Source of the DNA: Convolutriloba macropyga
Lineage: Eukaryota
DNA: 64,000 nt
NCBI RefSeq assembly: GCF_964194025.1
Contig: NC_134472.1
Coordinates: forward strand, 19,654,001-19,718,000
Direction: 5' to 3'
Of the stretch, positions 8,845 to 63,250 are shown in pieces; position 1 is the stretch's first letter, and each line of letters starts with the position of its first letter. The position numbers and the translations under genes were made by a program. The notes beneath the pieces were generated by a model that had not been told where the DNA came from, made no database searches, and was given only the letters and a program-made list of their open reading frames with translations.

Positions 8845-8848
8845 CTGA

Positions 8849-9463
8849 TATAGTGAACCATAATGTATGACATGCTCATAAATTACATATTAAGAGCATA
8901 ATTCGAAATTTTCATAAACAAAAAGGAGAACAAAAAGAGATGGTTACTAATAGTAAACCGGATTTTAACAATATAGAGAAAGCATCATAAATAATGATGG
9001 GAATCATCCTAGAATTTAATATTGACGGGACACGTCATGGAATGTTTGTTCATGACGGGATTCGTCAAGCAGGTAAACCTGTTATCTGTTAGTTTAACTA
9101 ACAGGGACCCATGCGGTAGAAAATAACTATGAGAAATTCCCACGGAGATTAACGAAAATGGGTAAAAATAACCTAAGATTAATTAACCATTGATAGGACT
9201 GAAACCAAAGAACATATTCAAACCTAAACCTTACACAATCGAGCTGCCTCTCTTTAATTGCTTTACATCTCTCATCTTCACAAATCTTTTAATATTTACA
9301 AGCAATTGATCTAATTTTGTATTAAACTGATTGAACTTTTACATTTGCTCCATTAAATTCAAGTCTGAAACTTGGAAAATTTTCCTCAGTAACTCCGAGT
9401 TTAAAATGCTTAGGAATAACATCCAACCCAAACCGTAACCGTTGACAGTGCACGGATATTACA
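8849..9463 (+). repeat. 5' LTR (615 bp, TA...CA termini)
   Basis: tatagtgaacca...ggatattaca; about 10 differences from the 3' LTR by manual comparison. Confidence 0.93.
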
Positions 9464-9464
9464 C

Positions 9465-9476
9465 TGGCGACAGAGA
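9465..9476 (+). promoter_or_regulatory. Primer binding site (TGGCGACAGAGA)
   Basis: TGG (complement of tRNA CCA) one base after the 5' LTR. TGGCGAC resembles tRNA-Ser-type PBSs; the tRNA identity is inference. Confidence 0.75.
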
Positions 9477-10503
9477 TTTAAAGGAAAGTTAACATTTTAA
9501 AATCTTTAACAAATTTGTCGGTAGGGAGACGCAAATAAAAAGCACTTTAACCCCAAAAACTCCGAGAATCGAATTATTCTCGATACTAACACAAAGATTT
9601 GGGATATCAAATCTTCAATTACCACCCATTTCCACCAATTTGTGTGGGAGTCAATTGCAAAAGCCACAGCGGGGGACATCAGTCACAGGACATCAGTCGC
9701 AGGAAAGCAAGTGGGAATTTACTCGCGTGGTGCTATCTTTTACTCGTTGGTGGAGAAAGAAACTTCTCTGAAAGGAAAGACCGCATCATACCAAGTGAGT
9801 AGAAATAAAGAGTTCTTTCTTGTTTTTGTCGTTCGTAATTGAAACTGATCGCCACTGCGTAATTCCTATTAGTCAAGGAAATATTTTTTTTTTGACCTTA
9901 GTTGCTAAATTGAGTTCTAGAAAACGAGCGGCATAACCATCGAAAAAAAAACAGTGAGGGATAGTCGCCTTGTTGAATTATTTGAAACAGTTGCTGAAAG
10001 TTATATATTGACTTTTTCTGAAACTAACATTAAAAAAAGAGAGAATATAAAGCGAAAAAAGTTGATCAGGTAACAATAAGCAGGGGAAATTAAAAGAAAA
10101 CTAAAGCACCTAATATCATCCTTGCCGTAAATAGAAACGAAAATATATTAAAAACATCAATAAAACAAGGAAAATCGAAGTTCAGCCAAAATCATATTAA
10201 AAAAAACAGAAATCAAGTGGGACAGTCGTCTATAAAACTGTAAATTAAAACTTCCTTAAAAATAAAGGAGAATAAATAAATAAGTAAAAAAAAAGAGAAA
10301 TACCGTATTGAAATAAGCGTTAGATTTCTATAGAGAAAAGTTTTTAAACAGTAAAAAAACAGAGAAAACTATAGGAATTCGAAGTTAAAAATAGAAAACA
10401 CCTGCCGGTGACGATCTACTTGACAATTATTTTATAGAAACTATTAATTTCAACAACTTAACAAAGTTTTAAAAGGGAACGATACAAGTAGGGCAACGAT
10501 AAA

Positions 10504-11472
10504 ATGGCAACGGGCTCAACCTCTAGAATGCTATTACCGGAAGCATTTACCGGTTCAAACGACTTGGAAAGTTACGTGACGCATTTTGAGCTATTAGCGG
10601 AACTACAAAAGTGGAAAAGAACTGAAGGAGATCCGGCTCGCGAAGTTGATGAACGGCCGCATTACTTTGCACTTAGGCTACAAAAATCTGCCATAGAGTT
10701 CTATCGCACTCTACCGCAAGCTACACGAGAAAATTATGATGAATGCGTTAAAGCTTTTCGAGAACACTACAGCGAAAAACCGGTCGTTTTCCGGGGACGG
10801 CTAGCTCGCCGCGTACAGCAACCAGGAGAAAAACTGACTGAATTTTTGGGAGATTTAAAGCAGTTGGCTTTGAAAGCTTACCCAACGGAGTCGCAAGACA
10901 TTAGAGACCATCTCGTTCTGAGAGGATTTCTGGAAGGAATCAACCATAGTCAGGTGAGGTTAGATCTCAGAAAGCAAATCGGCGACAAGGATATGAAAAT
11001 TGAAACAGTTTTGGAAAGAGCATTGCATCTGGAAACTGTAACAAGAATAGAGGAGGAAGAGCAAACACCAAAAGTTGCGGTAATTAGACGAGATGAAACA
11101 AAAGATTTAGTGGAGGCCGTCACCAAGCTTGTAAACCAATTGTCAGTAGATGCCAAACAGCGAGAAAACCGTCGAAACCAATCTAGGGAGCGAAGTGGTT
11201 CCCGGGGACGGTGGGGTGACGACAGACGTGACAGAGGACAGCAACAAGATCGTGGGTTTAACGATCGGCGGCGATTTCCAACGCCAGGACCTAGTCACCG
11301 AGACAGATCTTTTGGAAGAGAGGAACCGTCTAGGAGGAACGACAGGCAGGGTTTCAAGTGCAGAGCCTGTGGACAAGAAGGACACCTTTCGAAGAATTGT
11401 CGAAATTGTTTCCTATGTGGAAGTTCCCAACACGTGAAAAGAAACTGCCCTTTTAAAAAGAAAACCACCTAG
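10504..11472 (+). CDS. gag: Gag (322 aa, intact)
   Basis: Retrotransposon capsid motifs (F.G..D...Y..HFE; RVQQPGEKLTEF...L..LA..AYP), R/D-rich region, two CCHC knuckles CRACGQEGHLSKNC and CFLCGSSQHVKRNC. Confidence 0.93.
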   Translation: MATGSTSRMLLPEAFTGSNDLESYVTHFELLAELQKWKRTEGDPAREVDERPHYFALRLQKSAIEFYRTLPQATRENYDECVKAFREHYSEKPVVFRGRLARRVQQPGEKLTEFLGDLKQLALKAYPTESQDIRDHLVLRGFLEGINHSQVRLDLRKQIGDKDMKIETVLERALHLETVTRIEEEEQTPKVAVIRRDETKDLVEAVTKLVNQLSVDAKQRENRRNQSRERSGSRGRWGDDRRDRGQQQDRGFNDRRRFPTPGPSHRDRSFGREEPSRRNDRQGFKCRACGQEGHLSKNCRNCFLCGSSQHVKRNCPFKKKTT

Positions 11473-14400
11473 AACTGCAATGTCATTAGAGTTTGTTCGA
11501 CAAACACAATTAAATGTCTAAACGCAGAAATCATACTTCATGGGAACAGATGCGTTGGATTAATCGACAGTGGAAGTAGTATATCGCTTTTGAGCTGGTC
11601 CACATACGAAAAACTGGGAAAACCAGGAATTATACAAACATACACAAAACGAGTGTTAACAGCCAATAACTCAGCTGTCAAAATAATAGGCAGAGTAACG
11701 CTTTTGGTACAGATGCAACCAAGACTACCGGAGGTCGAACAAGAGTTTGTGATAACGGCAGACGAAGGTATAGAATGTCTACTGGGAATTGATTTCCTGA
11801 AAACCAATAAATGCGTATTGAACTTACACGAAGAGAAACTATATAGCAGTCACTTTAAAGTTTCAAAACCGCTCACCACAGAAAACGCAAGGTGTTCAAG
11901 TTTTTGCAATTGCGGGACAAAACACTTATATACAGAGTAAAAACGAAAATCTAATCAAAATTAGATTAGCTGATGAAAACGGAGAAGAAATTCCGGGAGT
12001 GGAAGGATTAGTGGAAGCAATTGGAGATTTTGAACTAAAGACTGGTTTGCTTTTAGCCGCCTGTATGATATCAATGGAAGATGGTTGGAGTTTGATAAAA
12101 GTGTTAAATCTAACGGACGCACCAGTAACCGTGTATAAAAGCACTAAAGTGGGAACTTACTTTGAAAACAAACAGAACTTAGTTGTGAATGGAATTTTCA
12201 CAAATCAAAATAAGCCAAAAAGATTAGAAACTTTTCAAATGGGAAAACACGCAAACTTGGAAGGTTCTAAACTAAATGACCAGCAGAAAGAGAAAGTACA
12301 GGAATTGTTCACGAGACATCAACAAGTCTTCTCACGAAACTCAAATGACTTAGGATATTGTGACAAAATTAAACACCAGATTAAACTCAACAAAGATGCA
12401 CAGCCGTTCAGAAGAAGTTATTGCAGTATGAGTTTTGACAAAAGAAAAGCAATGAAAAAAATTGTCGAAGATCTAGAGGATGCAAAATTAATTGAACCAA
12501 CCCATTCGTATTGGGCAGCACCATCAATATTGGTGAAGAAGAAAGATGGTAGCTACAGACTAGTTGTAGATTACAGAGGTTTGAATAAACAAATCGAGAA
12601 AACCAGTTGGCCGCTACCAAGAATAAATGACGTTATTGATTCTCTAGATGAAAATTGTTACTTTTCCAATATCGATTTGACATCGGGATATTTTCAAATG
12701 GCACTCGATGAAGAGTCACAGAACGTGACAGCCTTTGTAACTCCAATGTGACTCTACAAATGGAAGAGACTACCCATGGGTTTGGCGTCAGCGCCAGGAG
12801 CTTTTCAAAATTTAATGGAATTGATCATGTCGGGACTCTTCTATGAAGTGGCTCTAGTATACCTGGATGACATAATCATCTTCGGTAGATCCTTTGAGGA
12901 GCATCTCAACCGCCTAGATCTCGTACTTGGGCGACTTAAAGACGCTGGATTGAAAATAAAAGGCTCAAAATGCAGGTTTTTTCAGGAAAAAATTCATTTC
13001 CTGGGACACATTGTATCAAATAAAGGCGTAGAAGTGGATCCGGAGAAAGTAGCGGCAGTCAGTAAAATGAAAAGCCCACGAACAATAAAAGAATTGAGAG
13101 CTATATTAGGACTAGTAGGCTTTTACAGAAGATTCATACAAGATTTTGGAAAAATAGCAGAGCCGCTTTATAAGCTATTAAACAAAAAAGAACGTTTTAC
13201 TTGGAGCAAGGAATGCGAATCAGCAGTTGAACAACTAAAACAAGCTTTACAGAAAGCACCGATTTTGGGTTATCCGAATGACACGGATCCCTATACGTTA
13301 ACCACCGACGCTTCTCTGTTTGGAATTGGCGCAATTATTTCCCAAAGACAACAATGGGGTGAAAGAGTTATTGCATACGCAAGCAAAACGCTCAGCAAAA
13401 GTCAACGAAACTATTCTGCGACAAAACGAGAACTTTTTGCAATAGTTTATTTTACTCAACACTTCAGAAATTATCTTCTTGGACAACAATTTTTAATTGT
13501 TACTGACCATAGGGCCCTCACGTGGTTATATAGTTTTAAGGAACCAGACGGATTATTGGCCCGGTGGATAGAAAAGCTCGAACAGTTTGACTTTGAAATC
13601 AAACACGAAGCGGGAAAAAAGATCCCTCACGCGGACTGTCTGTCGAGAGTTCCACAGACTGAAGACCAAGTCGAAGACTGCAATCAAGTGAACCAAATAA
13701 ATACGGAAGAAAAAAATATCTGGTCCATTGGACTAGGGAAATCTGTTGAACAACTAGTTGAACATCAGAAAAATGCAGCCGACCTCATTATACTGAGAAA
13801 CTGGATTGAGAACGGGAAACGCCCTCAAAGAAAACACATGGCAGGAGCCTCTAGGGCACTGTGGAAACTTTGGATTGATTTTAGAAACTTACGGATTGAA
13901 AATGATCTAATCAAGAGACAGAAACATATTGACGAAATTAATAACAAATAGTCATTCAGAGATCACTTTTAAAAGAAATTCTACCTTTCCTTCATGAACA
14001 TTGCGGACACTTTGGTATGGCCAAGACATTTGATCGGGTTCGAGAACGATTCTACTGGCCCGGGATGAAAAAAGATGTCCATGAGTGGGTAAGTTCTTGC
14101 GAATAATGCTGTCAAAACAAATCTCCACACCAGAAACACATACACAGTCTGACAACGTGGAAACCAAGTCATCCGTTCTGGCAAGTTGCCTTAGACATTA
14201 TGGGACCTTTACCCGAGTCCAGCGGAAACAAATACATTCTGTTAATTGGAGATCAATTTACAAAATGGTATGAAGCAATTCCCATGAGCAACCAAGAAGC
14301 TTCAACGGTCGCTATGGCCTTTGTAAATATATGGGTTTCAAGGTTTGGTTGTCCGGCAAATCTTCATAGCGACAAGGGCAGTAATTTTATGTCGAATCTT

Positions 14401-15543
14401 TTCAAGAACATGTGTAAAGAGCTGGGAATTAACAGGACTTCAACAACAGCTTATCACCCTCAAGGAAACGCAATGATAGAGCGCACCAATCGCACAATCG
14501 AAGAGAGTCTTGCAAAATACGTGGGTGAACATCACAACACCTGGAGCGACTACCTTCCGCTAGTAATGATGGCGTACAGATCATCAATTCACTTTGTTTC
14601 GAAGTACAGCCCCTTTTACCTCCTTTTTGGACGATCATGCGCGCTGCCGATTGATTGCATGTATCAAACAATACAAACCAAAATCTACCCAACTTTGAGT
14701 GATTATGTTGGTTGCTTGAAAGATGAACTACAAACGTGCCATGAGCTGGTACGGGAAAGCATGGATGTGGAGCAACAAAGACAAAAAACCTACTATGACC
14801 GTAGCACATTTGGACCACAATATGAAGTAGGTGATTTAGTAATGGTGTTCAACCCCACAATGAAAACTGGCCAGACAAAGAAATTTAAATCCTTTTACAG
14901 CGGACCGCAGGTAATACGTGAAATAATAAACGATCTGAACTTTGTTATTGAGGATGTGAAAACAAAAAAACAACAAAAGGTCCACTACGATCGACTCAAA
15001 CGTTTTAACAGTAGAAGTGCTACCACCGATAAAAAAGAACCTAAGAAGGGAAAGATTGAACCGAAAATAGCACAAAACGACCTTACGGAGGACAATGATT
15101 TTGTGGAAATTGAAGTGGTGACCCCGAAACAGAATGACACAGAAAGAAGAGAAGTTCAACCTGAAGGAAATATTAGTCAAATTAATCCTAATACTGAAAC
15201 TCACAATGAGACAGTCAAAGACGAATCGTTTCAAACACCTATGGGTGGGAGTACAAGAGAATCAACAAATACTAACACCAACAATAAGAGCAGAAGCACA
15301 AAGATACCTGCGCCCAAAGTAGCCACACAGCAGAAGCGGGATAGTCTGGTGTCAACATCCGAAAGGAGTGAAGGCGAAGAATTTCCAAATAGGAGCACGG
15401 CTTCTACTTCGCAAAATGTCACCGAACGACGATATCAGACAAGAAGTGCGTCGGGAATAACAAGACCACGGAAACTGAAAGACTATTTTTTATTCAAGGA
15501 TAACGATTCAGATGAAAAATTTGATAATGATGTATTTTTTTAA
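11473..15543 (+). pseudogene. pol: Pol (protease-RT-RNase H-integrase), disrupted
   Basis: PR LIDSGSS in the gag frame just after the TAG; RT YRLVVDYRGLN, MGL..AP..FQ, YLDDII; RH TDAS, RELFAI, TDH; IN H..GHFG..FYWPGM..C..C, DIMGP/HSDKG/IERTN, GPQ-type SH3 CTD. Frameshifts near 11885 and 13940; stops at 12749 (TGA) and 14104 (TAA). Confidence 0.93.
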
Positions 15544-15559
15544 AAGGTGATACGACAAA

Positions 15560-17223
15560 ATGCAGAGTGCGTGGAACCCACATTGGATCGTGCAGCTGAA
15601 CTGGAAACTTCTTCAGATGAATATTGACCGAACCGACTCTGAATTTGTTCAGAAGATATCAAAAACTTTCATGAAAGGCGGAAATGAGAAAGGAGTGAAT
15701 TATGTCTACCCCGTGGATTGGATCAATCCAAAAGGTGAAACAAAGAAAGGTAACATCATGATAAATGCAGAAATTTTCATGGGGACTTTGTTCATTGAAA
15801 CTAGGGAAGCAAATGAAGGAACATGGTTATATTTTAAAGACCCTTTGAAACAGGAGCAGACCTTGTTATATCAAGGAGACACATTTGAAATAGATTCATT
15901 ACAATATCTGTTCGACCAAGACAAAAAACCAAACATCTTAACGATCGTTAAATTTTCAGACTGGATAACAGCAAAACTAGTCCGCGCTGGAAACAAAAAG
16001 TACTTGACGAGCAAATTAGACAGAAAAAGAAATTTAGTTGTCCAGTTGAAAAACAAGACAAAACATATAGACAGTTTTCTGCTTTTTGAAACAAACCACA
16101 GAAATTTGTTTTATACAACGGAAAAGTTGACGGCCACGGAACAAAATTTTTCAACAACAGATATATCTGAGACAGATCTCAGGGACATAAAACTCGATCA
16201 ACTTTTTGTGTGGGATTTTCGAGGCATGTTGAAAACCTGAAAGAAATAGAGTTATTAAATTGTCACATAGAAAAACTGCACAGAGCTATGATTCTAACGA
16301 CATCAACTAACGGAAATTCACACCAAATTTTCTTAAGTCAACAAAACGCTCTGGGTACACACGCAGAAAGAGCGGGAGGAATACTATATGTCCATAGGTG
16401 CGCTAAAGTAATCGTACATGTTGTCGAAAATCAGTTTTGTACGGAGGAAGTACCAGTTAGGGTGTTTTCTGACAACACTTCAGAAGTAATTAGATACATG
16501 GACCCCATTTCTAGAGTATTCTATAGAAATTTCACACTGATTAATTGCAACCCCATGTACCCGAACGCTCTTGAATTGCAGAATGGGTCATGGATAACAT
16601 ATGGGCGAAGGATACAATTACTTGAAAAACCCAATGTTATGCCTAATTATAGAGTTAACGTCAATTGGTCAACTTCGGCGCCAATGGAAGGGTTTTTCAA
16701 TGACAAGGACCTGGAACTTAGCAAAAGGGCCCAAAGGTTAAGGCATTCGAGAAAGACGATAACAGGAAGAGAAGTTTTCCTGGGACAAGGATGTTTATAT
16801 GAGCATGAGACTCTAGAGTATTTCAACACGGATTTAAATTACAATAATCAGTGGCATGAATTGCTGATTTTTGAATATTTGGGTAATGAAGTGAAACAAA
16901 TCTGGCATGTGGCCAGGGAAATAACCATCAGTTTAATGACTATTTTTATTGGATCTAAAATCATATTTTGTTTGGTACGCGTGTTTCTTTCAATCGATAT
17001 GCTACGCAGTGGCACCAATCCTGTAATTGCACTGCAACCCATTAACCGAATGGGGGAACTAGGTTATTTCCATTATCTAAAACAACGTACAAAGGAACAA
17101 GAATTGACAGGAAAAAGGACAGTTGAACGGTGGGATGGTGAAACAAACATCGTTGTTATAAAAGCAAAAAAGGTAAAATCTGTACCAGATATGGCCGAAA
17201 TTGAAATTGATACCTTAGACTAA
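15560..17223 (+). pseudogene. env: env-like glycoprotein (two ORFs joined by a frameshift near 16205), class III fusion protein-like
   Basis: Lies in the env position after IN. Cys pattern AGGILYVHRC.KV.V......C.EE.PV...YMDP.SR......INC.P..P......W, N-glycosylation sequons (NTS, NFT, NGS, NWS), C-proximal hydrophobic TM ITISLMTIFIGSKIIFCLVRVFL. No evident signal peptide. Confidence 0.7.
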
Positions 17224-17245
17224 TTTATGTGTATGATATGTAGGA

Positions 17246-18088
17246 ATGGCAGAACCAAAAATCGGTGATTATTGCTACTATCTACCCGAGTTGTTCGAAG
17301 TGAGGTCAATAGTCAGGCAACAAGTGTATCGGATTGTTGGTGTAACCTCAAACAAAAGGTACGTGGTGCCACTGACGCAGCTGCAACCACCCAATATAGT
17401 GGATAGAGCCGCAATTAGCGTTGATGAGTTAAATGAGATGCAACACAGAATCGAGGAACAACAAAAGAAGATTGACAACAGCGAAATGCTGGGAACAGCC
17501 GGGGCTCGGCTCGAAGAGGAGCTCCGGCAGTTAAAACTTGAAAGTCAAAGATTAGGTGATCAATTGCTGGAGACCCAACGGCAACTTGAATACGCTGGGA
17601 ATCAGCGGGAGTCTTGCAGAAGGCAGGTGGAAACATTGAAGAAAGAGTTGGAGGAGGTTACAAATGTAGCCGAAACAAAAACAAGGGAATGTATCGCTCT
17701 GGTGGATGAGCGGGAGGGCTTAGCTCGGGAGTTGGAGAATGCCGAGATAGACAATAGAAAGCTGAGGGGTAGAGTAAAAACAGAGCAAACCTCAAAGAAG
17801 GTCATACAGAGGAGGCTGGAGGCGATCAATGCGCAGAGCCCGTTCAGTCGACCTCCAAACTTTTATGAACTTCTATTCCTGCCACAGGGGGCCACAACCA
17901 GTACTATCCAGAAACATTTCAAAACGTTAGCAATGCTTTGTCATCCGGACAAGGGTGGTCGTGAGGACATGTTCAAAATCATTCTTCAAGCAAAGAAAAT
18001 TATGGAAGACGAGGAGGCCCGTAATATCTATGACAAGTACGGCATTGAAAAAGCACAAGAATATATGAACTCGAAAATGGACATTTGA
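17246..18088 (+). CDS. Retroelement-encoded 280-aa protein: SH3-like N-terminus, coiled coil, C-terminal DnaJ J-domain
   Basis: aa ~205-266 NFYELL.L...AT...I.K.FK.LA..CHPDKGG.E..FK.I..A..I..DEE.R.IYDKYG is a canonical J-domain (HPD at 17942-17950). aa ~57-195 is E/Q/L/R-rich heptad sequence. ATG-to-stop intact and inside the LTRs. Confidence 0.92.
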   Translation: MAEPKIGDYCYYLPELFEVRSIVRQQVYRIVGVTSNKRYVVPLTQLQPPNIVDRAAISVDELNEMQHRIEEQQKKIDNSEMLGTAGARLEEELRQLKLESQRLGDQLLETQRQLEYAGNQRESCRRQVETLKKELEEVTNVAETKTRECIALVDEREGLARELENAEIDNRKLRGRVKTEQTSKKVIQRRLEAINAQSPFSRPPNFYELLFLPQGATTSTIQKHFKTLAMLCHPDKGGREDMFKIILQAKKIMEDEEARNIYDKYGIEKAQEYMNSKMDI

Positions 18089-18129: not shown

Positions 18130-18142
18130 AAGAGGGAGGCAG
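18130..18142 (+). promoter_or_regulatory. Polypurine tract
   Basis: aagagggaggcag immediately precedes the 3' LTR. Confidence 0.8.
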
Positions 18143-18758
18143 TATAGTGAACCATATTGTATGACATGCTCATAAATTACATATTAAGCGCATAATTCGA
18201 AATTTTCATAAACAAAAAGGAGAACAAAAAGAGATGGTTACTAATAGTAAACCGGATTTTAACAATATAGAGAAAGCATCATAAATAATGATGGGAATCA
18301 TCATAGAATTTAATATTGACGGGACACGTCAAGGAATGTTTGTTCATGACGGGATTCGTCAAGCAGGTAAACCTGTTATCTGTTAGTTTAACAAACAGGG
18401 ACCCATGCGGTAGAAAATAACTATGAGAAAATCCCACGGAGATTAACGAAAATGGGTAAAAATAACCTAAGATTAATTAACCATTGATAGGACTGAAACC
18501 AAAGAACATATTCAAACCTAAACCTTACACAAACGAGCTGCCTCTCTTTAATTGCTTTACATCTCTCATCTTCACAAATCTTCTAATATTTACAAGCAAT
18601 TGATCTAATTTTGTATTAAACTGATTGAACTTTTACATTTGCTCCATTAAATTCAAGTCTGAAACTTGGAAAATTTTCCTCAGTAACTCCGAGGTTTAAA
18701 GTGCTTAGGAATAACATCCAACCCAAACCGTAACCGTTGACAGTGCACGGATATTACA
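18143..18758 (+). repeat. 3' LTR (616 bp)
   Basis: Direct repeat of 8849-9463, followed by TSD CTGA. Confidence 0.93.
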
Positions 18759-18762
18759 CTGA

Positions 18763-62649: not shown

Positions 62650-63250
62650 ATGATAATTATAATCGTTAATAGCACATTCCCGGAAAACTTCAGACGTATA
62701 ATATCTGGTGCTAGTGAATATGGAAAGACGGTATTATTAAAGTATCTATTTTTGAATAATATAGAATTCTATAGATTATATATCATTGGTCCTACTGGTT
62801 ATGAATTTGATGATTTAGAGTATGAAGATATAGTTTTTATTAAAGATATAAAAGAATTACCCCCACCCGAAAAATTACCGGAAGATATAAAGAAACTCAG
62901 TATACTTGATGATGTCGGGGGTAAGGAATCAGTTATTAATGAATACTTCTGAAGAGGTGGAAATAGTAATCGTAATATGATATATCTTAAACAAAATATA
63001 TTCTCGGCAGATAGACAGAATGTTAGAAAGAATTGTAATTTATTTATTTTCTTTGAACAAAGAGGTAGAGCCACCACAGCTATTTATCATGATTTCTTTA
63101 GTAGAGTAGAACCTAGTTATGATGATTTTAGTAGTATATGTGAGAAGGTATGGGCTGACCCTTATAATTACATGGTAATTGGTAAAAAATAAAAAATAGA
63201 AACCTTGATGGTAAATTAGGAATTAGTTGGGATCGGAGAAATTTCTAGTT
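62650..63250 (+). pseudogene. A32-like packaging ATPase no. 2
   Basis: P..FR.IISGASEYGKT, ILDDVG, EYF*RG.N.N.N.IYL.QN.F...RQNVR.NCN.FIFF.Q; internal TGA at 62950. Confidence 0.82.

Follow-up and report, generated by a model that had tools for sequence, protein, structure and literature searches.

In the genome of Convolutriloba macropyga, one clade of env-bearing Ty3/Gypsy elements carries a fourth open reading frame (ORF) behind gag, pol and env, and this ORF is a dedicated, long-standing accessory gene of that clade. The protein it encodes has a predicted small β-barrel at its N-terminus, a long predicted coiled coil and a C-terminal J-domain. We analyzed a window of 64,000 nucleotides (assembly GCF_964194025.1, contig NC_134472.1, positions 19,654,001-19,718,000 of the forward strand; genome of 1.18 Gb) and, from there, the related copies in the same genome. 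Coordinates refer to the window unless a locus is named.

The element in the window and its fourth ORF

The element in the window is 9.9 kb long, with paired LTRs, a primer-binding site, a purine tract and a 4-bp target duplication, and has the following features:

8845..8848 (no strand): 4-bp target-site duplication, left copy; the right copy is at 18759-18762
8849..9463 (+): 5' LTR, sharing 609 of 619 aligned positions with its 3' partner
9465..9475 (+): primer-binding site, from sequence; same start in families B and C
9792..9800 (+): inferred leader site with strong likeness to a splice donor, the cut following 9794; families B and C have similar sites in their leaders
10504..11472 (+): gag (Pfam Retrotrans_gag, two CCHC knuckles), open
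11473..15543 (+): pol (protease, RT, RNase H and integrase by Pfam), in four frames in the window copy
15560..17223 (+): env of gB/chuvirus type (Pfam PF24664, E 2.2e-13), with an acceptor-like site ending at 15546
17219..17243 (+): inferred stretch resembling a branch point and a splice acceptor, 2 nt upstream of the fourth-ORF start codon (ATG)
17246..18088 (+): fourth ORF, a single open frame of 280 aa with barrel, coiled coil and J-domain
17246..17395 (+): N-terminal small β-barrel (Tudor/PWWP/KOW/SH3-like) with conserved Arg/Lys and aromatics, from predicted fold and alignment
17420..17836 (+): long heptad-patterned helix spanning residues 59-197 (its length is 78-160 aa across families), from the predicted model and family comparison
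17858..18034 (+): J-domain (PF00226; Pfam and structure match), HPD at 17942-17950
18130..18139 (+): polypurine tract, from sequence
18143..18758 (+): 3' LTR, paired with the 5' LTR

Pfam matches in the window run in the order gag, protease, RT, RNase H, integrase and PF24664 (Monjiviricetes fusion) env, which is the Ty3/Gypsy order; by its structure and domain order, the element is a gB-type env-carrying Ty3/Gypsy LTR retroelement. The short target duplication was clear in the window and in 3 of the 5 other copies with both LTRs in view. Env matched PF24664 in the window's own family (A) and in family B, and a hydrophobic env N-terminus was recognized by eye in families A, B and C. The window copy is defective in pol and env: its env occupies two frames and, near 15615, falls short of sister copies by about 390 bp, while gag and the fourth ORF are open. 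The intactness claimed in an earlier reading of this DNA made from the sequence alone (hereafter, the sequence-only reading) therefore holds for the fourth ORF but not for the element around it. In all copies viewed, family-A LTRs start with TA and not with the usual TG (window 8849-8855 and 18143-18149).

The fourth ORF starts 22 nt 3' of the env stop, and the polypurine tract lies beyond its end, as the sequence-only reading had it when it described an intact 280-aa ORF with a full J-domain in this position. Residues 205-263 matched the DnaJ family PF00226 (E 7.6e-14; score 52 bits, with the cut-off at 27.8), with HPDKGG at residues 233-238, a string also present in polyomavirus T antigen. 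Outside the J-domain, the protein matched coiled-coil Pfam families, weakly only. An AlphaFold2 model built from a 20-row alignment (mean pLDDT 89, pTM 0.36) has four strands in residues 9-42, a single 139-residue helix (59-197) and the J-domain helices past residue 206. The coiled coil of about 140 aa that had been proposed was thus recovered as this helix with its heptad pattern. The linker measures 78-160 residues across families, with a heptad pattern in most, and this variation in length argues for a spacer rather than a ruler. The J part superposes on the Sis1 J-domain (rmsd 2.3 over 72 columns) and matches other solved J-domains too; together, Pfam and the model give a J fold with the HPD between helices II and III, as in a class C J-domain protein. 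No further DnaJ Pfam family, and hence no G/F region or client-binding domain, was found in 20 aligned members, and the J-domain is C-terminal. The protein is not built as a class A or B DnaJ, in agreement with the earlier view that it lacks the architecture of a normal host DnaJA/B. Signal peptides, membrane helices and hydrophobic segments were absent from the protein in every family checked.

The barrel modelled by itself with a pLDDT of 82. Its best structure matches were PWWP, Tudor, KOW and SH3-like folds, tied at Z 7.0-7.7 and all below Z 8; the SH3-like N-terminus of the sequence-only reading is one of several equal matches. The top match, a PWWP domain, comes from a structure determined together with single-stranded DNA, and the Tudor domains of SMN, TDRD1, TDRD3, Krimper, Papi and chromatin readers are also among the matches. 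The barrel gave no Foldseek match at E 0.001 or better and no sequence match in the PDB, and the ESM Atlas yielded no usable match for either the full protein or the barrel. Constant residues of the barrel include the aromatics Y11, Y12, F17 and Y28 and the basic residues R29 (12/12), R38 and R54 (11/12 each), plus three basic positions nearby. The positions that would correspond to a methyl-arginine cage, assigned by register with Tudor domains and not by superposition, fall on Pro14, Glu15 and Gly32, none of them aromatic. A profile comparison of the barrel with the SH3-like domain at the integrase C-terminus scored 8.7, within the range of 30 shuffles (6.0-12.2), and at this sensitivity an origin by duplication of that domain was rejected.

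Copies, families and selection

Searching the genome with the window protein gave at least 138 scored matches among 2018 candidates, and RT, integrase and env lay upstream of the fourth ORF in 19 of the 20 top copies fetched. Confinement of the ORF to this copy, which the sequence-only reading had named as an outcome that would speak against it, is therefore contradicted. In five of the 20 copies both LTRs were in view, and the LTRs of each pair were 97.4-99.8% alike. Distant full-length relatives led to two further families, B and C, in the same genome (150 matches were scored for family B, nearly all of them family B). Both families have the gag-pol-env-J layout and the same primer-binding start, and their fourth genes, only 25-34% identical to that of the window, keep the HPD. 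In comparison with the window, families B and C are 75-76% identical in RT/RNase H, 67-77% in integrase, 73-75% in the N-terminal half of gag and 31-45% in env, and, by part of the fourth gene, 45-50% in the barrel, 35-37% in the J-domain and 21-26% in the coil. The fourth gene diverges at the pace of env (31-45%), much faster than gag and pol (67-77%).

Linkage was counted in 60 ten-kb loci (41 A, 11 B and 8 C), a non-random set chosen from top matches and open frames. Env was found at most 2.6 kb upstream of the fourth gene in 57 of the 60 loci and RT or integrase upstream in 52; one locus had neither. The earlier proposal of a dedicated accessory gene of an env-bearing Gypsy lineage is borne out by these counts and by the three gag-pol-env-J families. 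Elsewhere in the same genome, none of five loci whose env belongs to other PF24664 families had the J gene (0/5), which indicates that the gene marks one clade and is dispensable for such a life cycle in general. Blocks of env-J-LTR or of env, spaced by about 2 kb, are repeated in tandem at G000:C10:58954437-58963035, at L121 and at L064.

Selection was analyzed in 65 family-A copies, with 5 tandem neighbours dropped and with CpG changes and gap-adjacent codons skipped. Variants private to one copy had an N/S of 491/122, those common to at least 3 copies of 92/71 and those common to at least 5 copies of 34/47, so that the shared-variant N:S was 0.32 (at least 3 copies) and 0.18 (at least 5) of the private ratio (p 3e-9 and 4e-12). 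The barrel, the coil and the J-domain, taken separately, were each significantly depleted of shared amino-acid changes. By the same measure gag gave 0.22/0.19, env 0.24/0.16 and RT 0.05/0.03. In a frame control with 46 copies, the true frame gave 0.29/0.19 and the two shifted frames 1.10-1.63, none significant; the LTR read as codons (43 copies) gave 0.76-1.07, again without significance. The HPD was intact and readable in 52 of the 65 family-A copies and not in the other 13, and 34 of the 65 had an in-frame stop. These stops and HPD losses result from decay after insertion, the private class, which is equally strong in gag, pol and env. The HPD was also intact in 10 of 11 family-B loci and in 5 of the 6 family-C loci where the motif was located (of 8 C loci). 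Among family representatives, at about 25-40% overall identity, the HPD is kept in 10/11, the basic helix II in 11/11 and the helix III Phe in 10/11. Neutral evolution with loss of the HPD, the second outcome that had been set against the gene, is thus not what the copies display, and the fourth ORF is almost certainly a genuine selected gene.

Expression, relatives and origin of the gene

The leader of all three families (A, B and C) contains a strong donor-like site, and acceptor-like sites lie just before env and just before the fourth ORF in each of them, as scored with a generic matrix. The leader donor-like site and the two acceptor-like sites suggest two spliced RNAs, and the fourth-ORF protein is probably made from the second, in which the leader would be joined to the acceptor just before the ORF. 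The AG letters of this acceptor are kept in 68/68 and 66/68 aligned family-A copies, with the neighbouring letters about equally kept, and the acceptor phase is identical in A, B and C. When family-A copies without the acceptor G were sought by pattern, there was one match, with env still upstream. There was no leader-to-acceptor join among the 15 joints listed, of 224, in four contig sets (kind not given) from one study that covered 30/30 element bins. A coding leader exon was not apparent either, as no in-frame Met was found at any leader donor in A, B or C. In family B (L106-L114) no Met precedes the conserved first barrel strand, and the same holds for the P0155/P0273 family of an unrelated genome; both may rely on a non-AUG start or on an exon further upstream.

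A search of 1.84 billion representative proteins returned distant full-length relatives at 25-40% identity. For three relatives, a search of the C. macropyga genome gave no close copy: P0283 (best match 43%), P0159 (30-34% over its full length) and P0284 (no match at E 1e-25). The P0284 cluster has 20 members, and the 15 listed are on long contigs of unequal size, as expected of a repeat. Judging from these matches, related proteins occur in other assemblies; the linkage to pol and env is a result for the C. macropyga genome. An env search outside this genome gave one match (26%), on a contig whose length was not shared by any J-gene contig. Of 8000 candidates scored with the barrel profile, 49 proteins matched; they are 224-324 aa long, all belong to the fourth-ORF family and none is named. 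No host gene of the barrel-coil-J build was among these 8000 candidates, which is weak evidence. In viral contigs (14 loci) and metagenome contigs (best 80 of 308) only the J-domain region was matched, at E 1e-12 or weaker, and we read these matches as probable generic DnaJ.

A quick J-domain tree of 87 rows and 80 columns included 17 of the 18 host loci and 5 of the 14 viral loci, and left out P0290. In it, the 13 element rows and two element-like fragments grouped as a single clade (SH-aLRT 97), separate from the host and viral J-domains. The gene is not a near-copy of any of the 17 host J-domains, contrary to what a transduced piece of host mRNA, also considered in the sequence-only reading, would be. 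A single old gain of the J-domain by the element lineage appears likely from this topology. The comparison with host DNAJ genes separated the element rows from the hosts but, in the deeper forks, did not pick out a donor, and the remodelled capture of a host DnaJ that had been suggested is one possible origin. Two J-domain genes lie on small contigs (L229 on C3927 and L230 on C486); one of them is a diverged counterpart of the chromosomal L226, and a second organism in the assembly is possible for both.

Candidate roles, known systems and further elements

Retroviruses and LTR elements rely on host Hsp70 and Hsp40. J-domains deliver Hsp70 to whatever the rest of their protein binds, and the HPD is a loop motif required for function, not for the fold. 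On the basis of its sequence and predicted fold, the fourth-ORF protein is likely a working Hsp70 co-chaperone, and the elements themselves would then probably steer the host chaperone. We propose a soluble adaptor, made by the element, that would tie host Hsp70 to the element's own RNA-protein particle: the basic barrel would bind the element's own RNA or an RNA-Gag/Pol particle, the coiled coil would oligomerise and serve as a spacer, and the J-domain would trigger host Hsp70 beside that target, leading to remodelling during export, assembly or uncoating. As the basic barrel is the only candidate binder in the protein, it would set the Hsp70 target. That this target is the element's own particle we rate at slightly below an even chance. 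Its favour comes from the barrel being the best conserved part, from the constant Arg residues, from the single-stranded DNA in the structure of the top PWWP match and from the lack of a hydrophobic segment, and the available text on CERV of Cer1, a spliced accessory protein acting on genomic RNA, offers a precedent (PMC10309623). Several points count against it. The fast, env-like divergence of the fourth gene fits a host-facing role better than Gag binding, the barrel matches are tied below Z 8 and a function does not follow from a common fold, the letters of the acceptor are kept no better than those around them, the family-B protein lacks a Met ahead of its first barrel strand, and five other env-bearing loci do without the gene.

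A host-facing alternative, which we consider unlikely, is counter-silencing: a Tudor-like barrel would attach to a complex of the host piRNA pathway or of chromatin, which the J-domain with Hsp70 would then dismantle. It would agree with the Tudor domains among the barrel fold matches, with the env-like pace of divergence and with the recent expansion of the families, as judged from the 97.4-99.8% alike LTR pairs in 5/20 copies. The presumed cage positions are non-aromatic, though in a register that was not superposed, the Tudor, KOW and PWWP matches are tied, and the shared variants are under purifying selection with no excess of amino-acid change, all of which weigh against it. Polyomavirus T antigen uses its J-domain and Hsp70 to dismantle Rb-E2F, according to the available text of PMC7356129, and by analogy a Tudor-like reader joined to a J-domain might aim host Hsp70 at the silencing machinery as the LTR-element counterpart of T antigen, an idea that we regard as unlikely. 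If true, it would be a dedicated chaperone-driven counter-defence protein of an LTR element in an infectious retrovirus-like invertebrate clade.

The gene could instead have entered together with env as one module, its product engaging cytosolic Hsp70 for Env traffic, budding or post-entry release in the way of auxilin-type or baculovirus J proteins. Env is upstream in 57/60 loci, both genes diverge at a similar pace behind acceptor-like sites, and env-J blocks are co-duplicated in tandem arrays; however, adjacency explains the co-duplication, none of the five other loci of the same env class carries the gene, and a protein with neither signal peptide nor membrane anchor would not chaperone the Env ectodomain in the ER lumen. 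We hold this partnership to be quite improbable. A decoy or sink for Hsp70 or for host J-protein partners, or a scaffold whose J fold no longer drives Hsp70, would fit the loss of parts of the usual helix III pattern in family C and P0193 and the 52 bits of the window domain against up to 101 bits for the best host DnaJ domains. We consider this more improbable still, given that the HPD, dispensable for the fold, is kept in 10/11 representatives at about 25-40% identity. Least of all do we expect a functionless passenger, that is, a host mRNA piece transduced once: the stops (34/65) and the missing readable HPD (13/65) in family A belong to the private, post-insertion decay that is as strong in gag, pol and env, purifying selection acts on the shared variants, the gene has stayed in position in three families, and the barrel profile matched only this family of proteins (at most 324 aa) among the 8000 scored candidates.

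Env-carrying Ty3/gypsy elements ('errantiviruses' in the wide sense) with an HSV/gB-type env have been described (Chary and Hayashi, eLife 2026, PMC13524379), and in its available text they share with the C. macropyga element the LTR-gag-pol-env-LTR layout, the Ty3/gypsy domain order, a class III-type env with signal peptide and the multi-copy state. The C. macropyga element differs in having a conserved fourth gene; that portion of the text has 0 mentions of DnaJ, J-domain, chaperone or Hsp70, and 7 supplements, which are tables and not sequences, have 0 mentions of DnaJ terms, so that the 1512 elements there are compared by description only. T antigen, as covered in the accessible part of PMC7356129, resembles the fourth-ORF protein in joining a virus-encoded J-domain with a short HPD loop to a targeting part, but its J-domain is N-terminal within a replication protein, whereas here it is C-terminal behind the barrel and coiled coil, in a separate gene. 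J-domains have also been reported, in the portion available of bioRxiv 10.1101/2022.02.15.480533, in 11 RNA-virus families of Kitrinoviricota and Pisuviricota, with a proposed role as folding or assembly aid; these are RNA-genome parasites with a J-domain, like the C. macropyga element, but there the domains are polyprotein parts of non-reverse-transcribing viruses. Stand-alone viral J-domain accessory genes are the baculovirus BJDP and the giant-virus and phage DnaJ proteins (PMC5794183, available text). They belong to DNA viruses, and their fold match to the fourth ORF is confined to the J-domain (TM over the query no higher than 0.24). The sequence-only reading had correctly cited polyomaviruses, giant viruses and phages as precedents, but its list lacked the 11 RNA-virus families and BJDP.

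Additional family-specific genes, typically expressed from spliced RNAs, are CERV of C. elegans Cer1, which acts on genomic RNA and has coiled-coil parts, and the GDSL, DEDDy, coiled-coil and TM ORF3s of bdelloid rotifer LTR elements; both are compared with the fourth ORF by description only, and the available texts of the two papers contain 0 mentions of a J-domain (PMC10309623, PMC5408684). In the literature searched, no J-domain gene was described in an LTR retroelement, as the sequence-only reading had supposed, nor was the barrel, coil and J-domain build; Repbase, GyDB and most subscription journals were outside the search, and a prior annotation is possible. As the gag-pol-env-J set shows, complexity with accessory genes, as in lentiviruses, can occur among the env-bearing Gypsy elements of invertebrates. 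Since the other domain of a J-protein names its client, the ligand of the barrel would reveal where Hsp70 is required, be it at a given step of the cycle or for a given host defence, and the protein is small, soluble and testable in isolation.

Other PF24664-env loci of this genome have ORFs of their own. A RING-finger ORF lies behind env at L253:9053-9478 and L254:8887-9384 (PF13920, E 3.4e-6 and 0.005), with a PAN-domain ORF before env at L253 and a Gypsy pol upstream at L254. An env family with an env frame of 898-902 aa amid several conserved ORFs of 100-280 aa occurs at L251 and L252 (3683-9643), and the 4 of these ORFs that were scanned had no Pfam match; at L255:7499-9334 a 611-aa ORF of no named family lies behind env. 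From this arrangement, L251, L252 and L255 look like further complex retroelements. Elsewhere in the window, positions 62650-62952 gave a weak match to the Pox_A32 packaging ATPase (E 5e-4, below cut-off), perhaps a Polinton-like remnant, positions 23541-26671 hold a broken LINE with endonuclease, RT and DUF6451, and positions 27524-32574 an array in which a 357-bp unit, with inverted arms of about 69 bp inside it, occurs about 15 times.
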